Of a DNA stretch of 34,186 nucleotides, positions 1,650-16,154 are shown in pieces; the stretch's first letter is position 1, and the number at the start of each line of letters is the position of its first letter. Origin of the DNA: Acidobacteriota bacterium (GTDB lineage: Bacteria > Actinomycetota > Thermoleophilia > Solirubrobacterales > 70-9); assembly GCA_041821645.1 (NCBI GenBank), contig JBGUDX010000001.1, positions 1 to 34,186 on the forward strand. Reading direction: 5' to 3'. The position numbers and the translations under genes are program-made. Below the pieces are notes generated by a model. It did no database searches, was not told the DNA's origin, and saw nothing but the letters and a program-made list of their open reading frames with translations.

Positions 1650-3053
1650 CTACTTCTTCGTCGTTTTCTTTTCGGTCTTCTTGGCCGGCACGGCTTTCTG
1701 TTCGAGGCGGTAGATCTCGCCCAAATTGCTGAACAGGTATACCCGCCCCCAGCCGTCTTCGCCGATTCCGTTGAGCGCCGTGTGTCGTCCCCGGCCCGGC
1801 GGCATGGCGGACCCGAGACTCCGGTCATCGGTGATCCATTGATCATCCGGCAACGCGGTTCTCACCCGGTTCGAGCAGAAATCGCCGTAGATGATCCGCC
1901 CCCTGATCTTGCTCAGCGCCGGATCCCTGACGACCGGCCCGCCGATCACAGCGCACCCGCGGGAGTGGGAGTAGGTCAGGACGGGCCAGACCACGTCCGG
2001 GGGATCAGCCACCGGGAGGCCGGCCGGGCAGAGCTCGCGGTCGCAGTCGTACGGCATGACCCCCTCGTAGATTTTCCAGCCGAAGTTGGCGCCCCAGGCC
2101 AAGCGGAACGGCAGGTTGTTGATTTCCTCGAAGCGCTGCTGACCGACATCGGTGATGGTCATCTCGAGTTCGCCGCCGGCGGGCCTGTGGAAACTGAAGG
2201 CGTGCGGGTTGCGCAGGCCGTAGGCGAATACCTCCCCCCGGCCGGGGCCGCCGGCGAACGGGTTTGAGCGGGGGATCCGGTATGTGCGCCCGCTCGTCTG
2301 GTCGGCCCTCGGATCGATCCTCAGAATCTTGCCGCGCAGGCTATGCAGGTTCTGGGCCAGATTGAGCGAGTCTCCCGGGTCGTTGCCGTCACCGACCGCT
2401 ATGTAGAGCAGACCTCCGAGAAACCGGATCGCGCCGCCGTTGTGACTGCCACCCTGGCTCACCCGCGGTATTCGAAGCACCGGTCGCCGGCTCTTCTCCG
2501 ATGATTGGAGCGGCTTCTTCGGGTTGCGGGTGAACTGGTCGATGCGGATGTCGCCTTTGCGATCGGTGTAATCGACGTAGAAGTGGCCGGTCTTCTGGTA
2601 GTCAGGTGGGAAGGCGAGGCCGAGCAGGCCCTGCTCGATCCGGAGCGAGCCGACCAGGTCGGAGATGTCGAGGAACGGTTTCGGCAGGGGGCGGCCCTGG
2701 CGGATCGCCCGGATCTTGCCGGTCCGCTGGGTCACGAAGATCACCTTCTTGTGTCCCGGAGCAGCCACGACCGCGGTAGGGCCCTTCACCTTGGCGACCA
2801 GGTCAAAGCCGATCTTCAGTTTCGCCTGGGCCTGCCCGGCCACCGGGAACAGCGAGAGACCGGCGAGAAGCAGGAGCGTCGCCGCGACGCAGACCCCGGC
2901 CGGGGTCCGGGATCGGCCGGGGGGCCGGTGGTCGGCGGCCGGGGCGGTCAGGTGGGGCGATGACACTGGTCCCGGGCCACGGCCCCGGACGTCGGTCGGG
3001 CCTTCGGTCGGTTTTTCGGTCGGGCCTTCGGTCCGGCCTTCGGTCGGGTTCAT
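1650..3053 (-). CDS. PQQ-dependent (soluble glucose/sorbosone dehydrogenase-like) beta-propeller sugar dehydrogenase, paralogue 2, secreted or anchored
   Basis: GSDH-family motifs: 'SHNGGAIRF..LYIAVGDG', 'GKILRIDP', 'FAYGLRNPHAFSF', 'ANFGWKIYEG'. I start it at the ATG at 3053, which forms an ATGA overlap with the upstream paralogue's stop. The 149 codons upstream in the 616-aa ORF overlap that gene in another frame. A hydrophobic signal or anchor 'VCVAATLLLLAGLSLFPVAGQAQA' is present. An alternative GTG start exists at 2966. Confidence 0.8.
   Translation of the reverse strand: MNPTEGRTEGPTEKPTEGPTDVRGRGPGPVSSPHLTAPAADHRPPGRSRTPAGVCVAATLLLLAGLSLFPVAGQAQAKLKIGFDLVAKVKGPTAVVAAPGHKKVIFVTQRTGKIRAIRQGRPLPKPFLDISDLVGSLRIEQGLLGLAFPPDYQKTGHFYVDYTDRKGDIRIDQFTRNPKKPLQSSEKSRRPVLRIPRVSQGGSHNGGAIRFLGGLLYIAVGDGNDPGDSLNLAQNLHSLRGKILRIDPRADQTSGRTYRIPRSNPFAGGPGRGEVFAYGLRNPHAFSFHRPAGGELEMTITDVGQQRFEEINNLPFRLAWGANFGWKIYEGVMPYDCDRELCPAGLPVADPPDVVWPVLTYSHSRGCAVIGGPVVRDPALSKIRGRIIYGDFCSNRVRTALPDDQWITDDRSLGSAMPPGRGRHTALNGIGEDGWGRVYLFSNLGEIYRLEQKAVPAKKTEKKTTKK
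2994..3053 (-). repeat. 5 x 12-bp tandem repeat (ggtcgggccttc-type units) encoding a tetrapeptide repeat (MNPT/EGRT/EGPT/EKPT/EGPT) at the 5' end of the downstream dehydrogenase paralogue
   Basis: Read directly from the sequence. The units are 2994-3005, 3006-3017, 3018-3029, 3030-3041 and 3042-3053, with 1-4 mismatches between units. Confidence 0.85.
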
Positions 3054-4294
3054 TGGGTGAGCCGGAGCAGTGAGCCCTCGAGTGTTGTCATGAACACGGT
3101 GCCTCGTTGGTTCGCCCCGAATGAAGAAATCTGTGGCACGGTCAGGCCGGTGGAGCCGGGCGATTTGACCCTGCCGGAACCGGGCCGGAATCGGCGGATC
3201 CGGTTGTCGCACAGGTCGGTGAAGATGTAGCGGCCGCGGAGCGCCGGAACCTTTCGGTCGTCCACGACCAGCCCGCCGATCACCGAGCAGGCCTCCGGGT
3301 GGCGCAGCACCAGTTTCGGCTTGATCGTGCCCGGGATCGGGGAGCCCGCGAAATCGGAAAAGCCTTCGAACGCGTTCCAGCCGAAGTTGGCGCCCCGGGC
3401 CCGGCTCAGCGGCAGATCGTTGACTTCCTCGAATTTGTCCTGGCCGACGTCTGCGATCAGCATTCTCGGTTTCCCGGACCGCCTCAGGTCGAATGACCAC
3501 CGGAACGGGTTGCGCAACCCGTAGGCGAAGATCTCGTCGCGACCCGGCCGGCCGACGAACGGGTTCGAGCCCGGAACCGAATACGGCCGGCCGCCCCCCG
3601 CCCGGGGGTCGATCCGGATCATCTTGCCGAGCAGTGAACCGAGGTTCTGGGCGTTGCCGTCGGCGTCGCCGCCACCGCCACCGTCGCCGGTGGCGAAGTA
3701 GAGGTTTCTGCCGAGGAAATGCAGCTGGCCGCCGTTGTGGTTCGCGTTGTCGCGGTGGGGGATGGTGATGACCCGGCGCCCCGAGTTGCGGCGGGCCCGG
3801 ACCGCGGTCCGCCGCCTGAACTCGTCCACCCTGATGTCACCGGTGGAGTCGGTGTAATAGACGTAGAACCGCTTGCTCTTCCTGTAGCCGGGCGGGAAGG
3901 CGATCGAGAGCAGGCCGCGTTCGCCACCCGATTCGACCCGCCCCCTGATGTCGAGGAAAGGCCGGGCCAGTTTGCGGCCCCGCCGGAGCACCCGGACCCG
4001 CCCCTCCTGCTCGACTACGAACATCAGCCGGGGAAAACCGGGGGCCGACTTGACTTCCACCGGTCGGTTGAAGTCGGCGACGGTGACCAGCTTCGGGCCT
4101 CCGCGGCCGGCGCTGACCTGGCTCTCCCGGTCCGATCCGCCTCTCTCATCGGCGCAGGCGGTCGCGCTGGTCGCCAGCGCGATGATCGTGAAAACCAGGC
4201 CGAGCCCGGCAGGGCGCAGCCGGAACAGTCCCGAGCCGGCACGACGCAGCCGCCCGGCTGGTGTTCTCCCGTTTTTCCCTGGCCCGCCGCCCAT
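3050..4294 (-). CDS. PQQ-dependent (glucose/sorbosone dehydrogenase-like) beta-propeller sugar dehydrogenase, paralogue 1, secreted or anchored
   Basis: 414-aa ORF with 'NHNGGQLHF..LYFATGDGG', 'GKMIRIDP', 'FAYGLRNPFRWSFD' and 'ANFGWNAFEG'. The N-terminus has a basic region plus hydrophobic segment 'LGLVFTIIALATSATAC'. Confidence 0.8.
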   Translation of the reverse strand: MGGGPGKNGRTPAGRLRRAGSGLFRLRPAGLGLVFTIIALATSATACADERGGSDRESQVSAGRGGPKLVTVADFNRPVEVKSAPGFPRLMFVVEQEGRVRVLRRGRKLARPFLDIRGRVESGGERGLLSIAFPPGYRKSKRFYVYYTDSTGDIRVDEFRRRTAVRARRNSGRRVITIPHRDNANHNGGQLHFLGRNLYFATGDGGGGGDADGNAQNLGSLLGKMIRIDPRAGGGRPYSVPGSNPFVGRPGRDEIFAYGLRNPFRWSFDLRRSGKPRMLIADVGQDKFEEVNDLPLSRARGANFGWNAFEGFSDFAGSPIPGTIKPKLVLRHPEACSVIGGLVVDDRKVPALRGRYIFTDLCDNRIRRFRPGSGRVKSPGSTGLTVPQISSFGANQRGTVFMTTLEGSLLRLTQ

Positions 4295-4306
4295 CGGACC
4301 GCGATT

Positions 4307-4999
4307 CTACTTGGAGCCCCGCTCCTGCTGCTTCAGGCTGAGCTGCTCGGCGTTGCTGATCGGCACGACCTGGCCCTTTTCGTTGACCCGAGTCAGTCGT
4401 GCCCGGCCAGTGATTCTGGCCGGCAGAACCCCCCGCGGCTGCTCGCCGGCGTTGTCGACCGCGACCGAGTCCCCGCCGAGGCCGGCCGATATCCGGTACG
4501 AGACCCGGTAGTTCCCCGGCTTCGCCGCGGTGACCCGCCAGATCATCCTGGCCGTCGCGCCGGGTTCGAGCTCCCTGAAGTTGAAGGTGCGCTCACTCGA
4601 AGTCGAAGCCCCGCCGCGCCCGGTGGTCCCGGCGAGCTTGGGGTAGCCGTTCTCCAGAACCCAGACGGGGCGCTGGTCGTAAGCCAGTCCCGGCTGCGGA
4701 TTGGCGTAGGCGAAGGCCAGGGTCGAGCCGCGACCGGGCAGGCCGATCACCGCGTTGATCGCCGGGATGGTCTCCTCGCCGGTGTTCTCTACGGCAAGTC
4801 GGAAGTCGTAGGTCTTGGAGATCGTCTGGCGGGGCTTGAACGTCGCGCGCTTCACCTCCACCGGGTACTCGCCGGCCGCCTCATTGTCGTACTGGGCTCC
4901 GACTTCTTCGCTGCCGCATCCGGAGACGGCCGCAATCACCACCACGCCGGTCAAGGCCGTGCTCAGGGCGATTCTGAGATGTCTGCTCGTCCCCCACAA
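4307..4999 (-). CDS. putative lipoprotein (unknown function), first gene of the dehydrogenase operon
   Basis: TTG start. The signal peptide has a lipobox: 'HLRIALSTALTGVVVIAAVSGC'. GC3-rich frame. It ends 12 nt upstream of the next gene on the same strand. Confidence 0.6.
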   Translation of the reverse strand: MWGTSRHLRIALSTALTGVVVIAAVSGCGSEEVGAQYDNEAAGEYPVEVKRATFKPRQTISKTYDFRLAVENTGEETIPAINAVIGLPGRGSTLAFAYANPQPGLAYDQRPVWVLENGYPKLAGTTGRGGASTSSERTFNFRELEPGATARMIWRVTAAKPGNYRVSYRISAGLGGDSVAVDNAGEQPRGVLPARITGRARLTRVNEKGQVVPISNAEQLSLKQQERGSK

Positions 5000-5114: not shown

Positions 5115-5921
5115 ATGGTAAAAGCAACCGCAACAAGGGCCTTCGAGCCCGCGAGGGCGACGTTTACCGAGGCCGGCGAGGTTGTGATCCTCACCGGCCG
5201 GACGCTCATCTCGGCGGTTAAAGCTCCCTATCCCTACGGGAATGAACTCATCGGCCAGTTCCTGTTCGCGCTTCAGCTCTGCTGGTTCCCGATGTTGATT
5301 TCCACCATCGCGTTCGGCTTCGGCGCGCCGGGCCTTCAGGCGGCCAACTTCCTGTCGCTGTTCGGTGCGCTCGACCGGCTCGGTGGCTTTTTCGTGCTCG
5401 CCTCGATTCGTGAGTTCGCCCCGTTCGTGACCGCGGTGGTCGTCGCCGGCGTCGCCGGCACCGCGATTACCGCCGACCTCGGTGCCCGCAAGATCCGGGA
5501 AGAACTGGACGCGCTCCAGGTCCTCGGAGTCGATCCGATCAAGAACCTGGTCGTACCGCGATTTCTCGCCCTGATGCTGATCACCGCCCTGCTCGACATC
5601 TACGCCGTGCTGTTCGGGATCAGCGGTGGCATCGGAGCCGAGATCCTCTACAACCAGCCGCTGGGAGGTTTCTTCGCGACGCTGTTCGCCAACGCGTCTA
5701 CCACCGAACTCGCCGCCTCGGTCATCAAGACCGCCCTGTTCGGATCGATCATCGCGGTCGTCTGCTGTTACAAGGGCATGACCGCCACCGGCGGTGCGGC
5801 CGGGGTCGGCCGGGCGGTCAACGAGGCCGTGGTCGCGGCCCTGCTCGGGGTGTTCTTCTTCAACTACGTGTTCACACAGACCATGCTGGCGACCAACCCC
5901 GACCTGCAGACGATCAAGTAA
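5115..5921 (+). CDS. MlaE/YrbE-family ABC transporter permease (YrbEA-like)
   Basis: 268-aa polytopic membrane protein with typical MlaE/YrbE features ('REELDALQVLGVDP', C-terminal 'CCYKGMTATGGAAGVGRAVNEAVV'). An AGGAGA RBS lies directly upstream of the ATG. Confidence 0.9.
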   Translation: MVKATATRAFEPARATFTEAGEVVILTGRTLISAVKAPYPYGNELIGQFLFALQLCWFPMLISTIAFGFGAPGLQAANFLSLFGALDRLGGFFVLASIREFAPFVTAVVVAGVAGTAITADLGARKIREELDALQVLGVDPIKNLVVPRFLALMLITALLDIYAVLFGISGGIGAEILYNQPLGGFFATLFANASTTELAASVIKTALFGSIIAVVCCYKGMTATGGAAGVGRAVNEAVVAALLGVFFFNYVFTQTMLATNPDLQTIK

Positions 5922-6721
5922 TGCGCGGCGGCTGGCTGACAGTTCCGCGCAGCTTCCTGGAGTCCATGGGGGAGATCTTCCGGTTCTGCTCGATGGTGGT
6001 CAGCCACGTCTTCTCCGGCCGGGTCCTCAAGTACTTCGGAGAGGCGCTCAATCAGGCCGGCATCCTGATTCTCGGTTCGACCACGGTGATCTTCGGCCTC
6101 GTATTCGTGATCGGACTGACCTGCGGGATCGAGGGCGCCTACTTCAACCGTTCGGTCGGCGCTCCGGCATACGCGGGAGTTTTCGCGGCCTGGTGCGACC
6201 TGCGCGAAGCGGTTCCCTACGCGTTCGGCTACATGCTGTCGGCCAAGGTCGGGACCGGAATCGTGGCCGAGCTCGGAGCGATGCGGATTTCGGATGAGAT
6301 CGACGCGCTCGAGGTGATGGGTGTGCCTCCGGTCACCTTCCTCGCGGCGACCCGGCTGCTCGGCGCCTGGATGACCCTTCCGTTCATGTACATGGCGGCG
6401 ATCGGCGTCGGTTATCTCGCTTCATACATCGCCGTCGTGGAGCAGATCGGCGACGTCTCCTCCGGCGGCTACTTATTGATCTTCTGGGCCTTCCAGAACC
6501 CACCCGACATCTTATTCTCGGTAATCAAGGCGATGACCATGGCGACGGTGATCGTCCTGGTCGGCTGCTACTACGGGTACACGGCATCGGGGGGACCGGT
6601 CGGCGTGGGCACCGCCACGGCGAAATCGATGGTCCTGAATATCATCCTGGTGCACATCATCGGTATGTTGGGCACCCTGGTTTTCTGGGGCGCCAATCCA
6701 CGAGCGCCGATAGGAGGGTGA
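5921..6721 (+). CDS. MlaE/YrbE-family ABC transporter permease (YrbEB-like)
   Basis: Paralogue of the previous gene ('SDEIDALEVMGVPP', 'GCYYGYTASGGPVGVGTATAKSMV'). Its start overlaps the upstream stop by 1 nt (TAATG). Confidence 0.9.
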   Translation: MRGGWLTVPRSFLESMGEIFRFCSMVVSHVFSGRVLKYFGEALNQAGILILGSTTVIFGLVFVIGLTCGIEGAYFNRSVGAPAYAGVFAAWCDLREAVPYAFGYMLSAKVGTGIVAELGAMRISDEIDALEVMGVPPVTFLAATRLLGAWMTLPFMYMAAIGVGYLASYIAVVEQIGDVSSGGYLLIFWAFQNPPDILFSVIKAMTMATVIVLVGCYYGYTASGGPVGVGTATAKSMVLNIILVHIIGMLGTLVFWGANPRAPIGG

Positions 6722-6725
6722 GGTT

Positions 6726-7820
6726 TTGAGCCAAGCAGACGAGACCGGGCAGCAGCCCGTCAACCAGCCAGAGGAGTCCCCCGAAGTCGAGGCGGCAGTC
6801 GATCGGGTCGAGCCCGGCGAACCCGACGGGGTGGCGGCCGAGGTCGAGGCCAGCGACGAGGCCGTGGACGGCAGCGCCGAAGAGGTGGAAGCCGGGGTGG
6901 CGGCCGAGGAGTCTTCGGTCAAGGTCATCGGGGGGCGTGTCACGGACAGTGGCTTCGTGGCCAGCGACGGGGCGGTTCTCGGCCGCGACTTCACGCTGCC
7001 GGGTGTTGCCCCCGGCGACAACGACCCGTACAAGTGGCACACCGGGGCCAAGCTCGATCACGGTGGCACCGACGCGATCGAGATCTCCGGCCTGGTCAAG
7101 CAGTTCGGCCGTGCCAGGATTCTCAACGGACTCGACCTCGGCCTGCCCAATGATCAGATCTCAATGGTGCTGGGGCCGTCCGGAACCGGCAAAAGCGTGT
7201 TGATCAAGTGCATCGTCGGCCTGCTCTATCCGGATGCCGGCGACATCCTGGTCAAGGGCGATTCGGTGCCCGCACTGAGCGACGACGACCTGTTCGAGTT
7301 GCGCAAGAAGTTCGGCCTGCTGTTCCAGGACGGCGCGCTGTTCGGTTCGATGAACATCTTCGACAACGTCGCTTTCCCGCTCCGCCAGCACACCGACAAG
7401 GGCGAGGATGAAATCGAGGAGATCTGCAGCCGGCGGCTGCGTGAGGTCGGCCTGGGTGAGGCTCACTACAAGATGCCGAACGAGCTTTCCGGCGGGATGC
7501 GCAAACGGGCCGGTTTCGCCCGGGCTCTGGTGCTCGATCCCGAGATCGTCATGTTCGATGAGCCCGACTCCGGGCTCGATCCGGTCCGTACCGCGCTTCT
7601 GTGCGAGTTGATCCGCGAGGTCCACGCCGAGAACGGCGGCTGCTACCTGGTGATCAGCCACGATTTGAACACCGCACGTCGGATCGCCGACTTCATCGCG
7701 GTTCTCTGGAAGGGGCGGATCGTCGAGCAAGGCCCCAAGGAGGAGCTCTTCGAGTCCGAGAACGAATTCGTCCACCAGTTCCTCCGGGCTGACGTGACCG
7801 GGCCCCTGGCGATGGATTGA
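6726..7820 (+). CDS. Mkl/MceG/MlaF-type ABC ATPase with an acidic N-terminal extension of about 115 aa
   Basis: Walker A 'GPSGTGKS', 'LFQDGALFGSMNIFDNVAFPLRQHT', signature 'LSGGMRKRAGFARAL', Walker B 'VMFDEPDSGLDP'. TTG start 7 nt after a GGAGGG RBS. The next in-frame alternative start is the GTG at 6957. Confidence 0.9.
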   Translation: MSQADETGQQPVNQPEESPEVEAAVDRVEPGEPDGVAAEVEASDEAVDGSAEEVEAGVAAEESSVKVIGGRVTDSGFVASDGAVLGRDFTLPGVAPGDNDPYKWHTGAKLDHGGTDAIEISGLVKQFGRARILNGLDLGLPNDQISMVLGPSGTGKSVLIKCIVGLLYPDAGDILVKGDSVPALSDDDLFELRKKFGLLFQDGALFGSMNIFDNVAFPLRQHTDKGEDEIEEICSRRLREVGLGEAHYKMPNELSGGMRKRAGFARALVLDPEIVMFDEPDSGLDPVRTALLCELIREVHAENGGCYLVISHDLNTARRIADFIAVLWKGRIVEQGPKEELFESENEFVHQFLRADVTGPLAMD

Positions 7821-10273
7821 GCCTGCGGGCGTTTTTTGGCTCGGCCGCCGCGGCGATCGCCCGGCACCCGTGGCCGGTACTCACGGTTGGGGCCGTGCTC
7901 GCGATCGCGGCGATCATCGGCGCGGCCGGGATGGGGGTGCAGCCGGTAACCGAGGCCTTCTTCGACCGTGACTCCGAGGCCTATCGGGCAACCGAGCGGG
8001 CCGACCGGGTGTTCGGCGGTGATCCGGTCGTCATCCTGGCCGAAGGGGATCTGGCCGAAACCCTCACGCCCGAGAACCTGGACCGCCTGGCCGTGCTGGA
8101 GACCTGCGTGTCGGGTGACATCAAGCAGGGCCGGGGCGAGCTGTTCAAGGTCTGCGAGAAGATCGCCGAGCTCGATCCGGTAGCGGTCAGCGCCGGTCCC
8201 GCGAACTTTCTGGGCCGGGCCGTGGCCGGGATCAACCGGGTCTACCAGCAGCAGCTGAAGCGGCTGAACTCGCTGCCGTCCGGGGCTGAACAGTCGGTCG
8301 AGCGTCAGCGCCTGCTCCAGGTGATCGCCGGGGTCGCCGCCCGCTACGGGCTCACCTCGCCGCCCAGCCTCGAGGACCCGAACTTCGTGCGAAAGGTCGT
8401 GTTCGGCTCGGGCAGGAACCCCAAACCGAAGCTTTCCTACCTCTTCCCCAATTCCGGGTCGGCCCAGATCGTACTTCGGCTTCGCAGCGACCTGACCGAT
8501 GCCGAGCGTTCGGAGGCGATCGGATTGATCCGGCAGGCCACCGAGGACCCCTCGACCCGGCTGAACGGGGTGAACTACGTGGTTTCGGGATCGCCGGTCG
8601 TCTTCGACGGCCTCTCCGGCGCGCTCCAGGCCGGCATCCTCGTTCTGGCCGTGGTCGCCCTTGTGCTCATGTCAATCGCCCTGGCCACGGTGTTCGGGTC
8701 AACCTGGAGACTGCTGCCGCTGGCCCTGGCCCTGGCCGGCGTCGTGATCAGTGCCGGCCTGCTTCGGCTGGCCGGCGGCTCGATCTCGCTGGCCGCACTG
8801 GGTGCGGCCCCGATCCTGATCGGGTTGACGGTCGACTACGCGGTCCAGATCCAGGCCCGTTTCGACGAAGCCGATCCGGCCCCGGGGCCGGCCGAGGCTG
8901 CCCGCATCACCGCCTCGGCGGGCCTGCCGATGATCGCCACGGCCTGTCTGGCCACGGCTTCCGGATTCACCGCACTGCTGCTCTCACCGTTTCCCCTGAT
9001 TTCGGAATTCGGGCTGCTGCTCGGGGCCGGCGTGCTGGTCTGCCTGGCGACCGTTTCGATCATGGGCTTCGCCGCCCTGTCGTTGCGCGGGGCCGGTCTT
9101 GCCGCGGCCGCTCCGGTCAGCCGCCTCGCCCTGTTCCAGTGGGTGCGGAAAGCGGCCAAATCGATGCTCGGGCTGACCATTCTCGCGCCGGGGCGATTGC
9201 TGCTGGTTTCCATTTTGATCGCCGCCTGCGGCTGGGCGGCGAGCACCCAGACGGAAACCGGAACAGAGATCAGCCAGCTGCTGCCTTCGCGGTCCGGTGT
9301 GGTCGAGGATCTGCTCGAGGTGGAGAAGATCACCGGAGCGTCCGGTGAGGTCGATCTGATCGTGACGGCACCCGACGTGACCGACCCGGAAGTCGTCGCC
9401 TGGATGGACCGGGTTCGCCGGAACGCACTCGCCCGGGCCGGATATGACGAGTCCGATCCGGATTGCGTGGGGGCCGATCTCTGTCCGGGCCCGGCGATCA
9501 GCGATTTCGTGGCCGATGGCGGGGCCGGGTTGTCCGCGGCCGCGATCCGGGGCACCCTGAGGGGCCTGCCGTTGCGGGAGCGCGAGGCCATCGTCGGCGG
9601 GGGCCTGGCCGGAAACGGGCCGCCGACCGTGACCAAGATCCCCTTTTCGATCCGGACCGGATCGGTCGATCGCCAGAAGGAGGTGATCGAAGGGATCGGC
9701 GCGGCGCTGGATTCGGGGGCGGACGCCCCGGAGGGCGTCTCGGCTGAGCTCACCGGTCTACCGGTTGTCGTCACCTCGTCGGTGGACGAACTCGCCTCGT
9801 CCCGCTACCTGCTGATCCTTGCCGCCCTCACGGCGGTCGGGCTGGTCCTGTTGCTGGTCTACCGTTCACCCCGCAGAGTGCTGGTGCCGCTCGTCCCGAT
9901 TCTGGTAGCCGGTGGCTGGTCGGCACTGATTGCCGCAGTGCTGGACTTGTCGCTGAACCCGCTTTCGGCCATCCTGGCAGTTCTGGTGACCGCGATCGCG
10001 ACCGAGTTCAGCGTGATTCTTGCCGGCCGCTTCTTCCAGGAACGGGAGCGCGGGTCGGGGACGGCCGCGGCCCTCAGGCTGACTTACGGCAGGACCGGAA
10101 TGGCGATCGCGGCCTCGGGTGTCACCGCCATAGCCGGGTTTGCCGCGCTGATGGCCAGTGACATCGGGATGCTTCGCGACTTCGGCTTGATCGCGGTGGT
10201 CGACCTCGCTGTCGCCCTGCTCGGGGTCGCGGTGGTGCTGCCGGCGGTGCTCTCGTGGCAGGAGGGGCGATGA
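7817..10273 (+). CDS. MMPL / RND-superfamily membrane transporter (HpnN/MmpL-like, 12-TM, two periplasmic domains)
   Basis: 818-aa ORF with a 1+5 / 1+5 TM layout and two soluble loops of about 200 aa. It carries the 'GLTVDYAVQ' motif in the first TM bundle. The start overlaps the ATPase stop (TTGA). Confidence 0.85.
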   Translation: MSLRAFFGSAAAAIARHPWPVLTVGAVLAIAAIIGAAGMGVQPVTEAFFDRDSEAYRATERADRVFGGDPVVILAEGDLAETLTPENLDRLAVLETCVSGDIKQGRGELFKVCEKIAELDPVAVSAGPANFLGRAVAGINRVYQQQLKRLNSLPSGAEQSVERQRLLQVIAGVAARYGLTSPPSLEDPNFVRKVVFGSGRNPKPKLSYLFPNSGSAQIVLRLRSDLTDAERSEAIGLIRQATEDPSTRLNGVNYVVSGSPVVFDGLSGALQAGILVLAVVALVLMSIALATVFGSTWRLLPLALALAGVVISAGLLRLAGGSISLAALGAAPILIGLTVDYAVQIQARFDEADPAPGPAEAARITASAGLPMIATACLATASGFTALLLSPFPLISEFGLLLGAGVLVCLATVSIMGFAALSLRGAGLAAAAPVSRLALFQWVRKAAKSMLGLTILAPGRLLLVSILIAACGWAASTQTETGTEISQLLPSRSGVVEDLLEVEKITGASGEVDLIVTAPDVTDPEVVAWMDRVRRNALARAGYDESDPDCVGADLCPGPAISDFVADGGAGLSAAAIRGTLRGLPLREREAIVGGGLAGNGPPTVTKIPFSIRTGSVDRQKEVIEGIGAALDSGADAPEGVSAELTGLPVVVTSSVDELASSRYLLILAALTAVGLVLLLVYRSPRRVLVPLVPILVAGGWSALIAAVLDLSLNPLSAILAVLVTAIATEFSVILAGRFFQERERGSGTAAALRLTYGRTGMAIAASGVTAIAGFAALMASDIGMLRDFGLIAVVDLAVALLGVAVVLPAVLSWQEGR

Positions 10274-11016
10274 GCCGGTCGGGACGGGGAACCCGCGGGC
10301 GGGAGGGGCGCGATGACGGGCCGGAGCCCGGATCGCAGCCAGTGCCCGGATCGCAGCCCCCGGTTGAGCCGCCGACAGAGAGTTTCCGCTCGGGCAGGGG
10401 CGCCCTGATCGGAGTCATCCTGGCGGTCGTGCTTGCCGTCGTCGCGATCTTCGCGCTGGTCAACCTCTTTCGCAACACGGAATCGGGAACGGTCGGCATC
10501 GGTTCGGTCGGCCTGGGGGAGAAGGTCGCACCGTTCGCGGTTCCGCTCGCAACCTCGGATCTCGATGGTGACGCCAATATCGACCCCGAGCGGGCCTGCT
10601 CGGTTGCCGGCGACGATGTGTTGCGTATCTGCGACTACTTCGGCCGGCCTCTGGTGATCTCGTTCTGGTTCACCAAAGGAGGAGAGGGCTGTATCGATGA
10701 CCAGGACACCTTCGACGAAGTCATGGCCCGTTTCCGGGGGCGGGTGAACGCGGTCTCGATAAGCGTTCGCGACGACCGCGACCGGCTGAAGGAATTGATC
10801 GATCAGCAGGGCTGGAAGGTACCGGTCGGCTTCGACCGCGATGGTGCGGTCTCGAACATCTACCGGGTCGGGGGCTGCCCGACGTTCCTGTTCGTCTCCC
10901 CTGGCGGGATTCTCGAGCGGGCCGAGATCGGCGACAGCTCGGACGCGGAGCTGAGCGCACAGGTACGCTCACTGCTCGATGGCAAGATCCCGAAAGAAGA
11001 AGACCCGCCGGACTGA
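10270..11016 (+). CDS. membrane-anchored thioredoxin-fold (TlpA/redoxin-like) protein with a non-canonical active site
   Basis: The ATG at 10270 makes an ATGA overlap with the MMPL stop, with GGAGG 4 nt upstream. A TM anchor 'LIGVILAVVLAVVAIFALV' is present. Redoxin pattern '..RPLVISFWFTKGGEGC..' and cis-Pro region 'YRVGGCPTFLFVSPGG'. Confidence 0.7.
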   Translation: MSRSGRGTRGREGRDDGPEPGSQPVPGSQPPVEPPTESFRSGRGALIGVILAVVLAVVAIFALVNLFRNTESGTVGIGSVGLGEKVAPFAVPLATSDLDGDANIDPERACSVAGDDVLRICDYFGRPLVISFWFTKGGEGCIDDQDTFDEVMARFRGRVNAVSISVRDDRDRLKELIDQQGWKVPVGFDRDGAVSNIYRVGGCPTFLFVSPGGILERAEIGDSSDAELSAQVRSLLDGKIPKEEDPPD

Positions 11017-11455
11017 GCCGGCCCGGCCGGCCCCGGCCGACGATGGTGGTGACGAATCCACTGCCTCCGGGCGCCGGGCGTCACGGCCGGACGAAAGGCC
11101 GCCCGCGCCGTGGGGGTCTTTCCCGCTGATGGAGCTGGCCGTCCTGGCCGGGCTGGTCCTGATTCTGCTGGGGGCGATCACCAACAACCCGGCCCAGCTC
11201 GGGATCGGGCTCGTTCTGGGGTCGATCGGCGGCCTCGAACTGGCTACCCGCGAGCACTTCGCCGGCTATCGCTCCCACACGACGCTGCTCGCCGGGGTGG
11301 CCTTCGTGATCTCCACGGCGGCCGGCTTTTTTCTGCTGGGGCTTCCCTTCTGGGTGAGCCTGGCGATCGGAGTCGCGATGGCCGTGCTGGCCTTCTGGTG
11401 GATTCGCCGGGCTTTCATCAGGGCCTCCGGCGGGCTCAGCTATCGCTTGCGCTGA
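10979..11455 (+). CDS. small integral membrane protein (hypothetical), basic N-terminus
   Basis: 158-aa ORF with 3-4 predicted TM segments and a GC3-rich frame. It overlaps the upstream gene by 38 nt. An alternative ATG at 11129 would give the 108-aa membrane core only. Confidence 0.5.
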   Translation: MARSRKKKTRRTEPARPAPADDGGDESTASGRRASRPDERPPAPWGSFPLMELAVLAGLVLILLGAITNNPAQLGIGLVLGSIGGLELATREHFAGYRSHTTLLAGVAFVISTAAGFFLLGLPFWVSLAIGVAMAVLAFWWIRRAFIRASGGLSYRLR

Positions 11456-13544: not shown

Positions 13545-14558
13545 GTGATGCCGGGCATCGCTGACAACGGCATCGAGGTCGAGGGCCTGGTCCGCCAGTT
13601 CAAGAACGGCCCCCGGGCGGTCGACGGGATCTCGCTGCAGGTGAAGCCGGGCGAGATCTACGGCTTCCTCGGTCCCAACGGTGCCGGCAAGTCAACAACC
13701 GTTCACATGCTGACCACGCTGCTGCCACCGACCGACGGGGTGGCCCGGGTCGCCGGATTCGACGTCGCTAAAGAAGGACCGCAGGTCCGGAAGGTCATCG
13801 GAGCCGCCCTGCAGGAGGCGGCGCTCGATCCCCACCTGACCGCCGACGAGCACATGCGGCTTCAGACAGCCCTGAACGGGCTCGACCGTGAGGATCGCCG
13901 GGAACGGGGAGCCGAGTTGATCGAACGGGTCGGGCTGAGCGATGCGGCCGACCGGAAGGTCGGTGACTACTCGGGCGGGATGAAGCGCCGGCTGGACCTG
14001 GCTCTCGCCCTGGTGAACAGGCCGCGGGTGCTCTTTCTCGACGAACCGACGACCGGGCTCGATCCGCAGAGCCGGTCCGCGCTCTGGGAGGAGGTGACCC
14101 GGCTCTCCAGGGAGGACGGGGTGACCGTTTTCCTGACTACCCAGTACCTCGAGGAGGCCGATCAGCTTGCGGAACGGGTCGGGATCATCGACGCCGGTCG
14201 AATCGCGGCCGAAGGTACCCCGGCCGAGCTCAAGGCGGAGATCGGGCGGCCGAGCGTCGAGGTCGTCCCGAGGGATCCGGCGAGGGCCGAGCGGTCGGCC
14301 GCCATCCTGAAACGGTTCGGGCGGCCGGTTCCCGCTGCCGGCGAGGCGCTCGGCGTCCGCCTGAGCGAGGGCATCGACGAGCTGGTCGGAATCGTCAGGG
14401 CCTTCGATGAGGCCGAGATCGAACTGGCCAGCCTGGTCCTCAACGAGCCCACCCTGGATGACGTCTTCCTGGCCAAGACCGGTCACCATCTGGAGGGCTC
14501 GGAGGGCGGCGGCGACACCGGCGAGATCCCCCTGCCCGACCAGGCGACGGCAGGCTGA
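13545..14558 (+). CDS. ABC transporter ATP-binding protein (DrrA-like, ABC-2 exporter type)
   Basis: Walker A 'GPNGAGKST', signature 'YSGGMKRRLDLALAL', Walker B 'LFLDEPTTGLDP'. GGAGGG lies immediately upstream; the start is GTG 13545 or ATG 13548. Confidence 0.9.
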   Translation: MMPGIADNGIEVEGLVRQFKNGPRAVDGISLQVKPGEIYGFLGPNGAGKSTTVHMLTTLLPPTDGVARVAGFDVAKEGPQVRKVIGAALQEAALDPHLTADEHMRLQTALNGLDREDRRERGAELIERVGLSDAADRKVGDYSGGMKRRLDLALALVNRPRVLFLDEPTTGLDPQSRSALWEEVTRLSREDGVTVFLTTQYLEEADQLAERVGIIDAGRIAAEGTPAELKAEIGRPSVEVVPRDPARAERSAAILKRFGRPVPAAGEALGVRLSEGIDELVGIVRAFDEAEIELASLVLNEPTLDDVFLAKTGHHLEGSEGGGDTGEIPLPDQATAG

Positions 14559-14574
14559 CCGCAACGATGGCCGG

Positions 14575-15354
14575 ATGAGCCAGTCGGTCCTTCCGATCCA
14601 GGCCGGTGCCATGGCCGGGCGCTCAGTGGTGCGGTTGCTCCGCCAGCCGGCGATGGTGATTCCCAGCCTGATCTTTCCGCTCTTCCTGCTGGCGGTCAAC
14701 GCCGGCGGACTTGACTCGGCCACCGAGCTACCCGGTTTCCCGACCGACTCCTACATCACCTTCGCCCTCGGGTTCACCTTCATCCAGGCGGCGATCTTCT
14801 CGACCATGAACGCCGGTCAATCCCTGGCCCAGGACATCGAGAACGGTTTCTTCAGCCGGCTGATGCTGACCCCGATGAGACCGTCGGCCCTGCTTGCCGG
14901 CCAGCTGGCGGGGCTGGTCCTGCTCGGGCAGTTTCAGACCCTGACCTATCTGGCGGTCGGCCTCGTCGCGGGTGCCCACATCAGCGCCGGGATCGGCGGC
15001 GTCCTGGTCCTCGCCCTGCTGGTTTCGATCATCTCGGTCGGGTTCGGCGGGATCGGTCTGGTGATGGCGATCCGGACCGGGTCGGGCGAGGCGGTCCAGG
15101 GCATGTTCCCGCTGATGTTCGTGCTGCTCTTCTTCAGCTCGATGGCCCTGCCGCGCGACCTGATCGCCCAGGACTGGTACCGGACCGTGGCCACGATCAA
15201 TCCGGTCAGCTACCTGATCGAAGCCATCCGTAGCCTGATGATCACCGGTTGGGACGGTGAAGCGCTCGCCCTCGGGTTCGGGGTGGCGATCGCCCTCGCG
15301 ATCGGCTCGATCTCGGCCGCTTCCCTTTCGCTGAAGGGAAGGATGCTGAAATGA
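14575..15354 (+). CDS. ABC-2 type transporter permease (DrrB-like), paralogue 1
   Basis: Six-TM-type hydrophobic protein. ATG at 14575 (M57 of the ORF), 17 nt after the ATPase stop. Confidence 0.8.
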   Translation: MSQSVLPIQAGAMAGRSVVRLLRQPAMVIPSLIFPLFLLAVNAGGLDSATELPGFPTDSYITFALGFTFIQAAIFSTMNAGQSLAQDIENGFFSRLMLTPMRPSALLAGQLAGLVLLGQFQTLTYLAVGLVAGAHISAGIGGVLVLALLVSIISVGFGGIGLVMAIRTGSGEAVQGMFPLMFVLLFFSSMALPRDLIAQDWYRTVATINPVSYLIEAIRSLMITGWDGEALALGFGVAIALAIGSISAASLSLKGRMLK

Positions 15355-16154
15355 GGAGAGGCCATCCGGGAAAGCGCGGCCCCCAGGCCGACAACTATCT
15401 GTCGGCAGCGCTCGGCGTCTGCTGGCGCTACCTGCACAACCTCTATACGAGGCCGGCCCAGTTCATCCCGTCGCTGCTGTTCCCACTCTTCTTCCTGGCC
15501 GCGTTCGCCGGCGGCCTTTCGGTGGTCGCAGACTCGCCCGGTTTCGGCTACTACGACTACACGGCTTTCCAGTTCTGCTTCGTACTGATCCAGGCTTCGG
15601 CACTGGCCGGGGTCTTCGCCGGGTTCTCGATCGCCTCGGACTTCGAACTCGGCATGGGACGCCGGATGATGCTGGCGACAGAGCATCGCAGCGCGATCGT
15701 GTTCGGCTACGCGATCGGTGCCGCCTCCCGGCTCGGTGTGACCTGGGTCGTGGTCACCGGAGTGGCTCTGCTCGCCGGAATGAGTGTCGGTGGCGGCGGG
15801 GTGGACCTGGCCGGCATGTACAGCCTCGCCCTGCTGGGCAACATCGCCGCGCTGCTTTTTTCGGCCGGAGTCGCACTTCGCTTCCGGACGCTCCAGGCCG
15901 GTCCGCTGATGCAGATGCCCGTCTTCATCCTGCTGTTCCTCGCACCGGTCTACGTTCCCCAGGCGCTGTTGACCGGCTGGATCGAACCGGTCGCCTCGGT
16001 CAACCCGGTGACCACGGTGCTGAACGCGGCCCGCAGTCTGGTGGCCGGGGAACCGTCCGGCGTACTGGCCGCCTACGCGGTCGCCTTCGGCCTGATCGCG
16101 GTCATGGCGGTCTGGGCGATCAGCGGCCTGAGGCGGGCCGAAGCCGCCGGTTGA
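15351..16154 (+). CDS. ABC-2 type transporter permease (DrrB-like), paralogue 2
   Basis: ATGA overlap with the preceding permease. Polytopic membrane protein with the same architecture. Confidence 0.8.
   Translation: MRRGHPGKRGPQADNYLSAALGVCWRYLHNLYTRPAQFIPSLLFPLFFLAAFAGGLSVVADSPGFGYYDYTAFQFCFVLIQASALAGVFAGFSIASDFELGMGRRMMLATEHRSAIVFGYAIGAASRLGVTWVVVTGVALLAGMSVGGGGVDLAGMYSLALLGNIAALLFSAGVALRFRTLQAGPLMQMPVFILLFLAPVYVPQALLTGWIEPVASVNPVTTVLNAARSLVAGEPSGVLAAYAVAFGLIAVMAVWAISGLRRAEAAG

Follow-up and report, generated by a model that had tools for sequence, protein, structure and literature searches.

A YrbE-MceG lipid transporter core without adjacent mce genes, encoded beside an mmpL/thioredoxin-like gene pair in one clade of Solirubrobacterales

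A 34,186-nucleotide (nt) stretch of DNA (the window; positions 1 to 34,186 of contig JBGUDX010000001.1, from a bacterium placed in the Solirubrobacterales) carries, at 5115 to 11016, five consecutive genes for two MlaE/YrbE-family permeases, an Mce-type ATPase, an MMPL transporter and a thioredoxin-fold protein. Here we show that the first three encode the ATP-binding cassette (ABC) core of an actinobacterial Mce lipid transporter, a YrbEA/YrbEB permease heterodimer with the MceG ATPase, and that the module is a derived variant of this transporter, not a new kind of machine. The ancestral operon of the order had six mce genes (mceA to mceF) between mceG and a translationally coupled mmpL/trx-like pair; the state lacking them has a single origin, in one large uncultured Solirubrobacterales clade, which thereby put mceG beside mmpL. 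We favor, with a probability of roughly 0.6, a reading in which YrbEAB-MceG would be a shared motor for mce genes at other sites in the genome, while the MMPL/Trx-like pair would be a separate, co-expressed lipid transporter.

The open reading frames (ORFs) and gene identities at 5115 to 11016 had been proposed in an earlier note on this DNA, and all proved correct by ORF calling and Pfam. All five genes lie on the plus strand. The two permease paralogues, yrbEA (5115 to 5921; 268 amino acids [aa]; Pfam MlaE, 2.5e-54) and yrbEB (5921 to 6721; 266 aa; MlaE, 4.4e-52), share one base between the TAA stop of the former and the ATG start of the latter (TAATG, 5919 to 5923). The ATPase gene mceG, or mkl (6726 to 7820; 364 aa; ABC_tran, 2e-26), starts with TTG 4 nt past the yrbEB stop, with the ribosome-binding site GGAGGG upstream. 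Its stop overlaps the start of mmpL as TTGA (7817 to 7820), and this is the site that holds six mce genes (~8.5 kb) in relatives. The mmpL gene (7817 to 10273) encodes an 818-aa MMPL/HAE3-like transporter of the RND superfamily with Pfam MMPL (PF03176) at 1.1e-36 over two stretches, and its stop in turn overlaps, as ATGA (10270 to 10273), the start of trx-like (10270 to 11016, within an ORF that opens at GTG 10255), which encodes a membrane-anchored, ResA/TlpA-like thioredoxin-fold protein. These overlaps and the 4-nt gap are as the earlier note had described them. Third-position GC is 0.80 to 0.85 across all five genes, and the ORFs were therefore taken as coding. Scans for promoters and terminators and with Rfam returned nothing exceeding chance.

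The assignment of the core rests on matches to solved structures. The best structural match of MceG is the MceG of the Mycobacterium smegmatis Mce1 complex (8fed_G, 9.2e-77), and that of YrbEA is YrbE1A of the same complex (8fed_I, 7.5e-36); because both point to 8FED, the core is of the actinobacterial Mce type, not the proteobacterial Mla type. The closest NCBIfam model for the ATPase is MlaF, and the MlaE and MlaF NCBIfam scores fall far under the equivalog cut-offs. YrbE proteins carry an EExDA motif in their penultimate cytoplasmic loop (Casali & Riley 2007, PMC1810536); this loop is intact in YrbEA (REELDAL) and YrbEB (SDEIDAL) and near-invariant in loci with and without mce genes. In MceG, residues 1 to ~115 form a variable, acidic, low-complexity N-terminal extension, followed by the ATPase core (~116 to 364). 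The extension (window 6726 to 7070) differs widely in length and sequence between loci, and the ABC genes of relatives encode 285 to 407 aa.

No MlaD/MCE match was found by Pfam in any plausible gene of the window. Hidden Markov models (HMMs) built from Thermoleophilia Mce proteins, both full-length and domain models, likewise found none in a six-frame translation of the window (best E value 0.25). The absence of an MCE ORF, claimed for the operon in the earlier note, thus holds for the whole 34 kb. The same note had allowed for a cryptic MCE domain in the 818-aa protein or its neighbors; this was looked for and rejected, as there was no Pfam MlaD match and the lineage-specific HMMs were empty in all six frames. 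A STAS/MlaB match was not seen either among the scanned window genes. All core features of an Mce transporter are matched, and the one defining operon feature that fails is the presence of adjacent mce genes.

We then compared the locus among relatives. A genome scan with an MMPL alignment as query, limited to one genome per species, yielded 80 best loci, and gene order in these was compared by tblastn of the window proteins. Metagenome-assembled genomes (MAGs) of Solirubrobacterales and Thermoleophilia supplied the closest MMPL homologues as well as all 80 loci. Almost all share one block, consisting of glucose/sorbosone dehydrogenase (GSDH) paralogues and a lipoprotein gene on the minus strand, yrbE-yrbE-mceG-mmpL-trx-like with a small membrane protein gene, and an aminotransferase gene on the minus strand. 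Over the clade without mce genes at the locus (MCE-less), YrbE and MceG are about 75 to 97% identical (74 to 97% for YrbEA), or ~80% in round figures, with MMPL down to ~39% and the Trx-like protein to ~45%. The gene order that the earlier note had singled out as needing a check in relatives is kept, with mceG and mmpL at most 524 nt apart in 73 of the 75 related loci where both genes are visible. The distances, which were measured to the nearest possible start codon and are hence biased towards short gaps, comprise overlaps of 4 nt (n = 23) and 1 nt (n = 1), gaps of 0 to 12 nt (n = 25) and 33 to 524 nt (n = 24), and two intervals of 8.6 and 9.8 kb.

These junctions bear on translational coupling, which the earlier note had claimed between the ABC module, the MMPL protein and the redoxin-fold protein. 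The claim stands for mmpL to trx-like, with a 4-nt overlap in 53 of 74 loci, including one that retains its mce genes (L079). It does not hold generally for mceG to mmpL, where an overlap is found in only about one-third of the loci and the two genes are split by the 9.8-kb interval in a locus of the MCE-less clade (L020, 1 to 10000). By these junction distances, the tightly coupled unit is mmpL-trx, not mceG-mmpL. The insertion in L020 consists of unrelated genes, among them those for a peptidase S15, a Na+/H+ exchanger and an MBOAT protein, and it occupies the same junction that holds the six mce genes in other lineages.

The 8.6-kb interval, in a Thermoleophilaceae MAG (L079), was found to consist of six consecutive genes encoding 442 to 508 aa, each with an N-terminal MlaD domain; this locus is a canonical operon of yrbEAB plus six mce genes that also includes mceG. 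Searches that started from the L079 Mce proteins led to six further loci with six mce genes between mceG and mmpL, namely a 1.8-Mb contig (L081), the complete genome of Baekduia alba DSM 104299 (L082, CP114013), Conexibacter woesei (L083, AUKG01000001), a contig from the Joint Genome Institute (JGI) (L084) and two long-read contigs (L085 and L086). The full arrangement yrbEA-yrbEB-mceG-six mce-mmpL-trx-like is therefore present in seven loci outside the clade of the window, those of the cultured Baekduia alba and Conexibacter woesei among them. Four of them (L082 to L084 and L086) also share the downstream synteny of the window, with MMPL, AhpC/TSA-like, B3_4 (not in L084), small membrane protein and minus-strand aminotransferase genes. 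Because six mce genes and the same pair occur together at the orthologous locus of relatives, the MMPL/Trx-like pair is an old downstream neighbor of a canonical mce operon and did not arrive as a replacement for MCE proteins. The ancestral operon thus had both MMPL and MCE genes, and the arrangement in the window is derived from it by deletion. Of the two possibilities that the earlier note had offered, an MMPL conduit in place of MCE proteins is not supported in view of these seven relatives, whereas two co-expressed lipid machines fit the data.

Might the Mce core and the MMPL/Trx-like pair simply be unrelated systems lying side by side, their co-transcription incidental? We consider this quite unlikely. 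The mceG-mmpL spacers do vary, L020 has its insertion, and in L081 a 5'-nucleotidase gene and ~1.7 kb without a called gene separate mceF from mmpL; moreover, the entire neighborhood from GSDH to aminotransferase is syntenic, so that adjacency alone is weak evidence. However, an mce operon followed by mmpL-trx persists across lineages whose MMPL proteins are only ~37 to 45% identical, among them Conexibacter, Baekduia and the Thermoleophilaceae MAG, and the same-strand gap from mceF to mmpL is only 16 to 55 nt in every MCE-bearing locus except L081, with overlaps frequent in the MCE-less clade.

A tree of the MceG core was rooted with a more distant MceG-like protein and included the five of the seven MCE-bearing loci whose MceG was complete enough. 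All sampled MCE-less loci were monophyletic in 50 of 50 bootstraps, with the five MCE-bearing loci as their sister group. The canonical actinobacterial unit consists of two yrbE and six mce genes (PMC1810536). Because the MCE-less loci are monophyletic and this unit is canonical, the simplest reading of the tree would be a single loss or relocation of the ~8.5-kb mce block in the ancestor of the clade of the window. No mce relics were detected by blastx in the longer mceG-mmpL spacers (all E values at least 0.1). Longer spacers tend towards the deeper branches of the MCE-less clade, and the overlap is found in the subgroup of the window; this suggests that the spacer was later compacted, leaving only a few bases or overlapping stop and start codons in many descendants.

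We asked how the core fared after this event. In a column-by-column comparison, fixed differences between MCE-less and MCE-bearing loci numbered 1 in YrbE1, 7 in YrbE2 and 14 in MceG, almost all of them conservative. These alignments show no decay of the core and no burst of change such as a new partner would be expected to bring, and the constraint on YrbE and MceG has been maintained since the mce block left the locus. A decaying remnant, in which yrbEAB-mceG would be a functionless relic, is accordingly hard to sustain. The mce genes are gone from the locus, and one locus (L070) has a single yrbE gene; yet the window has unbroken reading frames, full-length alignment is possible in the great majority of loci, amino acid identity is ~75 to 97% over a deep clade, the Walker, signature and EExDA motifs are conserved in the core proteins, and third-position GC is typical of coding DNA. 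With the core so conserved, we regard this explanation as extremely improbable and effectively refuted. In L070 (8151 to 9947), the lone yrbE gene is followed by the ABC gene and mmpL, which reflects either a real loss or an assembly error.

The MMPL protein is a distant member of its family. Its score against the HAE3 model TIGR00921 is 259.1 bits, below the curated cut-off of 351.9, although JGI labels its orthologues HAE3; its matches in the PDB, to MmpL4/5 and HpnN, are weak (E value about 1e-8). The proton relay of MmpL3-type proteins consists of Asp-Tyr pairs in transmembrane segments 4 and 10 (TM4 and TM10). The MMPL protein has an invariant VDY motif (V339-D340-Y341), and the counterpart in its second half reads E730-F731. 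Four cysteines are also invariant (C97, C113, C550 and C556), apparently in two large loops.

The Trx-like protein matches AhpC-TSA at 34.6 bits against a cut-off of 26, with PDB matches to ResA and thioredoxin-like proteins at ~4e-6. An N-terminal membrane anchor can be read from the sequence as the hydrophobic stretch ALIGVILAVVLAVVAIFALVNLF ahead of the fold. The fold and anchor given for this protein in the earlier note are thus borne out; the term redoxin calls for one correction, in that the CxxC motif is absent. All 80 orthologues have FWF(T/S)(K/R)GGxxC at this place, with just one Cys. Across the 80 orthologues C110, C121, C141 and C203 are invariant, C203 immediately before the cis-Pro-like position (CPT). 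A single-sequence AlphaFold2 model was too poor for use, with a pLDDT of 47. The invariant cysteines in the Trx-like protein and in the MMPL protein coupled to it suggest a relationship between the two proteins that is based on disulfides and either structural or redox in nature.

Under the reading that we favor, YrbEAB-MceG would keep its usual role as the ATP-driven inner-membrane base beneath a hexameric MCE ring, the MCE proteins would be encoded at unlinked sites in the genome, and one motor would serve several unlinked mce sets. The MMPL/Trx-like pair would be transcribed together with the Mce core and would form an exporter of its own that uses protons to drive lipid transport. The two probably act on the same envelope-lipid economy, MMPL in export and Mce in retrieval or import, and MMPL would not be a physical substitute for the MCE tunnel. 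A motor component that serves several separately encoded MCE sets has precedents (PMC13492129, PMC10665443): MceG of Mycobacterium tuberculosis (Rv0655) is the shared ATPase of Mce1 to Mce4 (PMC13492129), and Solirubrobacterales have multiple copies of MlaD/E (Grasekamp et al. 2023, PMC10665443). In Supplementary Data 1 of the latter study, Conexibacter sp. Seoho-28 has 56 MlaD and 14 MlaE, Thermoleophilum album has 12 MlaD and 2 MlaE, and Patulibacter americanus has 12 MlaD, of which the nine listed are all on contig 1 in two runs, and only 2 MlaE, on contig 2 (ATUD01000002.1, genes 28 and 29). From these published counts, mce sets without a yrbE pair of their own occur in this order. The counts also make likely what the earlier note had named as a refuting outcome, a canonical mce set elsewhere as the partner of these YrbE paralogues. 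Sharing in M. tuberculosis is confined to the ATPase, every mce operon having a yrbEAB of its own, whereas here the permeases would be shared too, as the gene counts let us infer for P. americanus and T. album.

Clusters of mce genes without yrbE were also encountered on three metagenome contigs. One (L087, 318 to 13441) has six MlaD genes split by a lytic transglycosylase gene, followed by TetR and MceG-like genes and no yrbE; another (L088, 2832 to 11512) has six MlaD genes and neither yrbE nor an ABC or MMPL gene at a distance of up to 10 kb; and the third (L089, 10001 to 11464) has a solitary MceF-like gene among secreted proteins of no known family.

Several observations weigh against a shared motor with distant mce genes. 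The three clusters just described are metagenomic and without taxonomic assignment. With 30 Mce queries, no mce gene was found within 10 kb of the module in 78 related loci (~22 kb of sequence per genome), and no Mce protein from the MCE-less clade surfaced in homologue searches, which returned only the MCE-bearing operons of other lineages or orphan clusters. Among the best 120 matches for each of two MceF queries (at least 48% identity), no named match carried the label 'Solirubrobacterales bacterium', which most MCE-less MAGs bear; this is weak evidence because these lists reach only matches of at least 48% identity, few of which are named. The closed chromosomes of the clade (OY970241.1, OY969812.1, OY969925.1, OY968772.1 and OY970268.1) are small, at 2.6 to 3.0 Mb, and outright loss of mce is conceivable for that reason. 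Finally, the spacer between mceG and mmpL shrank repeatedly until the genes overlapped, perhaps because selection favored co-expressing the Mce core and MMPL in stoichiometric amounts.

The same observations lend themselves to another explanation, by which all MCE proteins were lost and YrbEAB-MceG either cooperates with the MMPL/Trx-like pair, extracting lipid with ATP and passing it to an RND conduit or taking it from one, or acts alone as a lipid flippase. We hold this to be doubtful. The lack of nearby mce genes, the small genomes and the purifying selection that has acted strongly on YrbE and MceG since the loss would all agree with it, as would the position of mmpL, which is still adjacent to mceG in 73 of 75 loci and either overlaps it (24 loci) or follows within 12 nt (25 loci). 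However, since the MMPL pair stands beside six mce genes in all seven outgroup loci, that adjacency is inherited and not newly evolved, and the junction tolerates spacers of 33 to 524 nt in 24 loci as well as the 9.8-kb unrelated insertion. A change of partner would moreover predict a burst of substitutions in YrbE or MceG, which is not seen, and unlinked mce sets are known in this order. It is also established that MlaE-type permeases act with MCE proteins, and to our knowledge no characterized one works without them. It thus seems to us rather unlikely that a streamlined, uncultured clade of soil Solirubrobacterales without any MCE protein keeps YrbEA/YrbEB-MceG co-translated with MMPL and a thioredoxin-fold protein lacking CxxC. 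If true, no MlaE-type ABC motor would have been shown before to operate without an MCE ring, and this one might pass lipid to an RND transporter or receive it from one.

Compared with known systems, the module resembles the operon of Conexibacter woesei, Baekduia alba and the Thermoleophilaceae MAG (L079 and L081 to L086), with which it shares an orthologous locus, its flanks, YrbE, MceG, MMPL, the Trx-like protein and the small membrane protein, and from which it differs in lacking the six mce genes kept there between mceG and mmpL. With mycobacterial Mce1 (YrbE1A/B-MceG-Mce1A-F-LucB, PDB 8FED) it has in common a YrbE heterodimer, an MceG-type ATPase and the EExDA loops. Unlike Mce1, the operon in the window has no mce genes, carries mceG inside it after yrbEB and with an acidic N-terminal extension, and runs on into mmpL and the Trx-like gene in place of mam/mas genes. 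E. coli MlaFEDB likewise has an MlaE-type permease and an MlaF-type ATPase; the window, in contrast, has two different permease paralogues and not an MlaE homodimer, with no adjacent MlaD and no STAS/MlaB match. The HAE3/MmpL RND lipid exporters (HpnN and MmpL3/4/5) share the MMPL domains and have an Asp-Tyr motif in TM4 to which the invariant D340-Y341 pair may correspond, but the MMPL of the window is distant from them, below the HAE3 cut-off, and has a CxxC-less thioredoxin-fold protein as its partner, not MmpS.

In the export of phthiocerol dimycocerosate, an ABC transporter, DrrABC, and MmpL7 are encoded together, and both are required for transport of the one lipid. By analogy, this pair may serve as a model for co-operation without physical fusion, although DrrABC is an ABC-2 exporter and not of the MlaE type like the core in the window. 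The host of the window is presumably, from what is known of the class, a monoderm without mycolic acids, unlike mycobacteria. Solirubrobacterales are listed among the monoderm Actinobacteria (PMC10665443). In agreement with the earlier note, which knew of no description of such an architecture, the literature that we searched contained no account of mmpL and a Trx-like gene in linkage with an mce operon, and none of a yrbEAB-mceG module without its mce genes; the relevant counts stand uncommented in one supplementary table.

The module is flanked by genes that are themselves conserved. Upstream and divergent from it, as the earlier note had observed, lies a minus-strand gene (4307 to 4999) for a predicted lipoprotein with a lipobox-like VSGC and weak DUF11 similarity; it stands outside the transporter and is found at the same upstream position in nearly all MCE-less loci. 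Further upstream are tandem GSDH paralogues, two in the window (1650 to 4294), whose ORF calls overlap at 3050 to 3500; owing to this overlap, the 616-aa GSDH ORF probably starts further in. The upstream flanks of seven loci (L052, L055, L061, L063, L067, L070 and L077) have ~4 to 8 separate GSDH matches.

Downstream, on the plus strand (10979 to 11455), a gene encodes a small, apparently multi-pass membrane protein of 158 aa with a basic, Pro-rich N-terminus, and it overlaps the 3' end of trx-like by 38 nt if the first ATG is used. It is conserved downstream of MCE-less and MCE-bearing operons alike and has no relative in Pfam, NCBIfam or PDB; the idea that it is a LucB-like Mce subunit was dropped, as no PDB sequence relative was found. 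A B3/4-domain gene follows trx-like in most related loci (15030 to 15686 in L082, 14979 to 15644 in L083 and 12866 to 13810 in L027) and is absent in the window and its closest relatives. Immediately past the aminotransferase gene, at 13545 to 16154, the window carries genes for a DrrA-like ABC ATPase and two ABC-2 permeases, a DrrABC-type exporter; a DrrA-like ATPase occupies the same position in about ten closer loci, making this a third lipid- or drug-type transporter in the neighborhood.

Altogether, this operon has lost its mce genes in a large and abundant soil lineage, which has nevertheless retained the transporter core under very strong constraint. If mce genes lie elsewhere in these genomes, the shared-component logic of M. 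tuberculosis MceG would extend to the permeases, with one motor serving several interchangeable MCE tunnels; if they are absent, the core would be an MCE-independent Mla-type motor. In either case, the linkage of an mce operon to mmpL and a Trx-like gene across Solirubrobacterales points to a pairing of envelope-lipid import and export in actinobacteria without mycolic acids.

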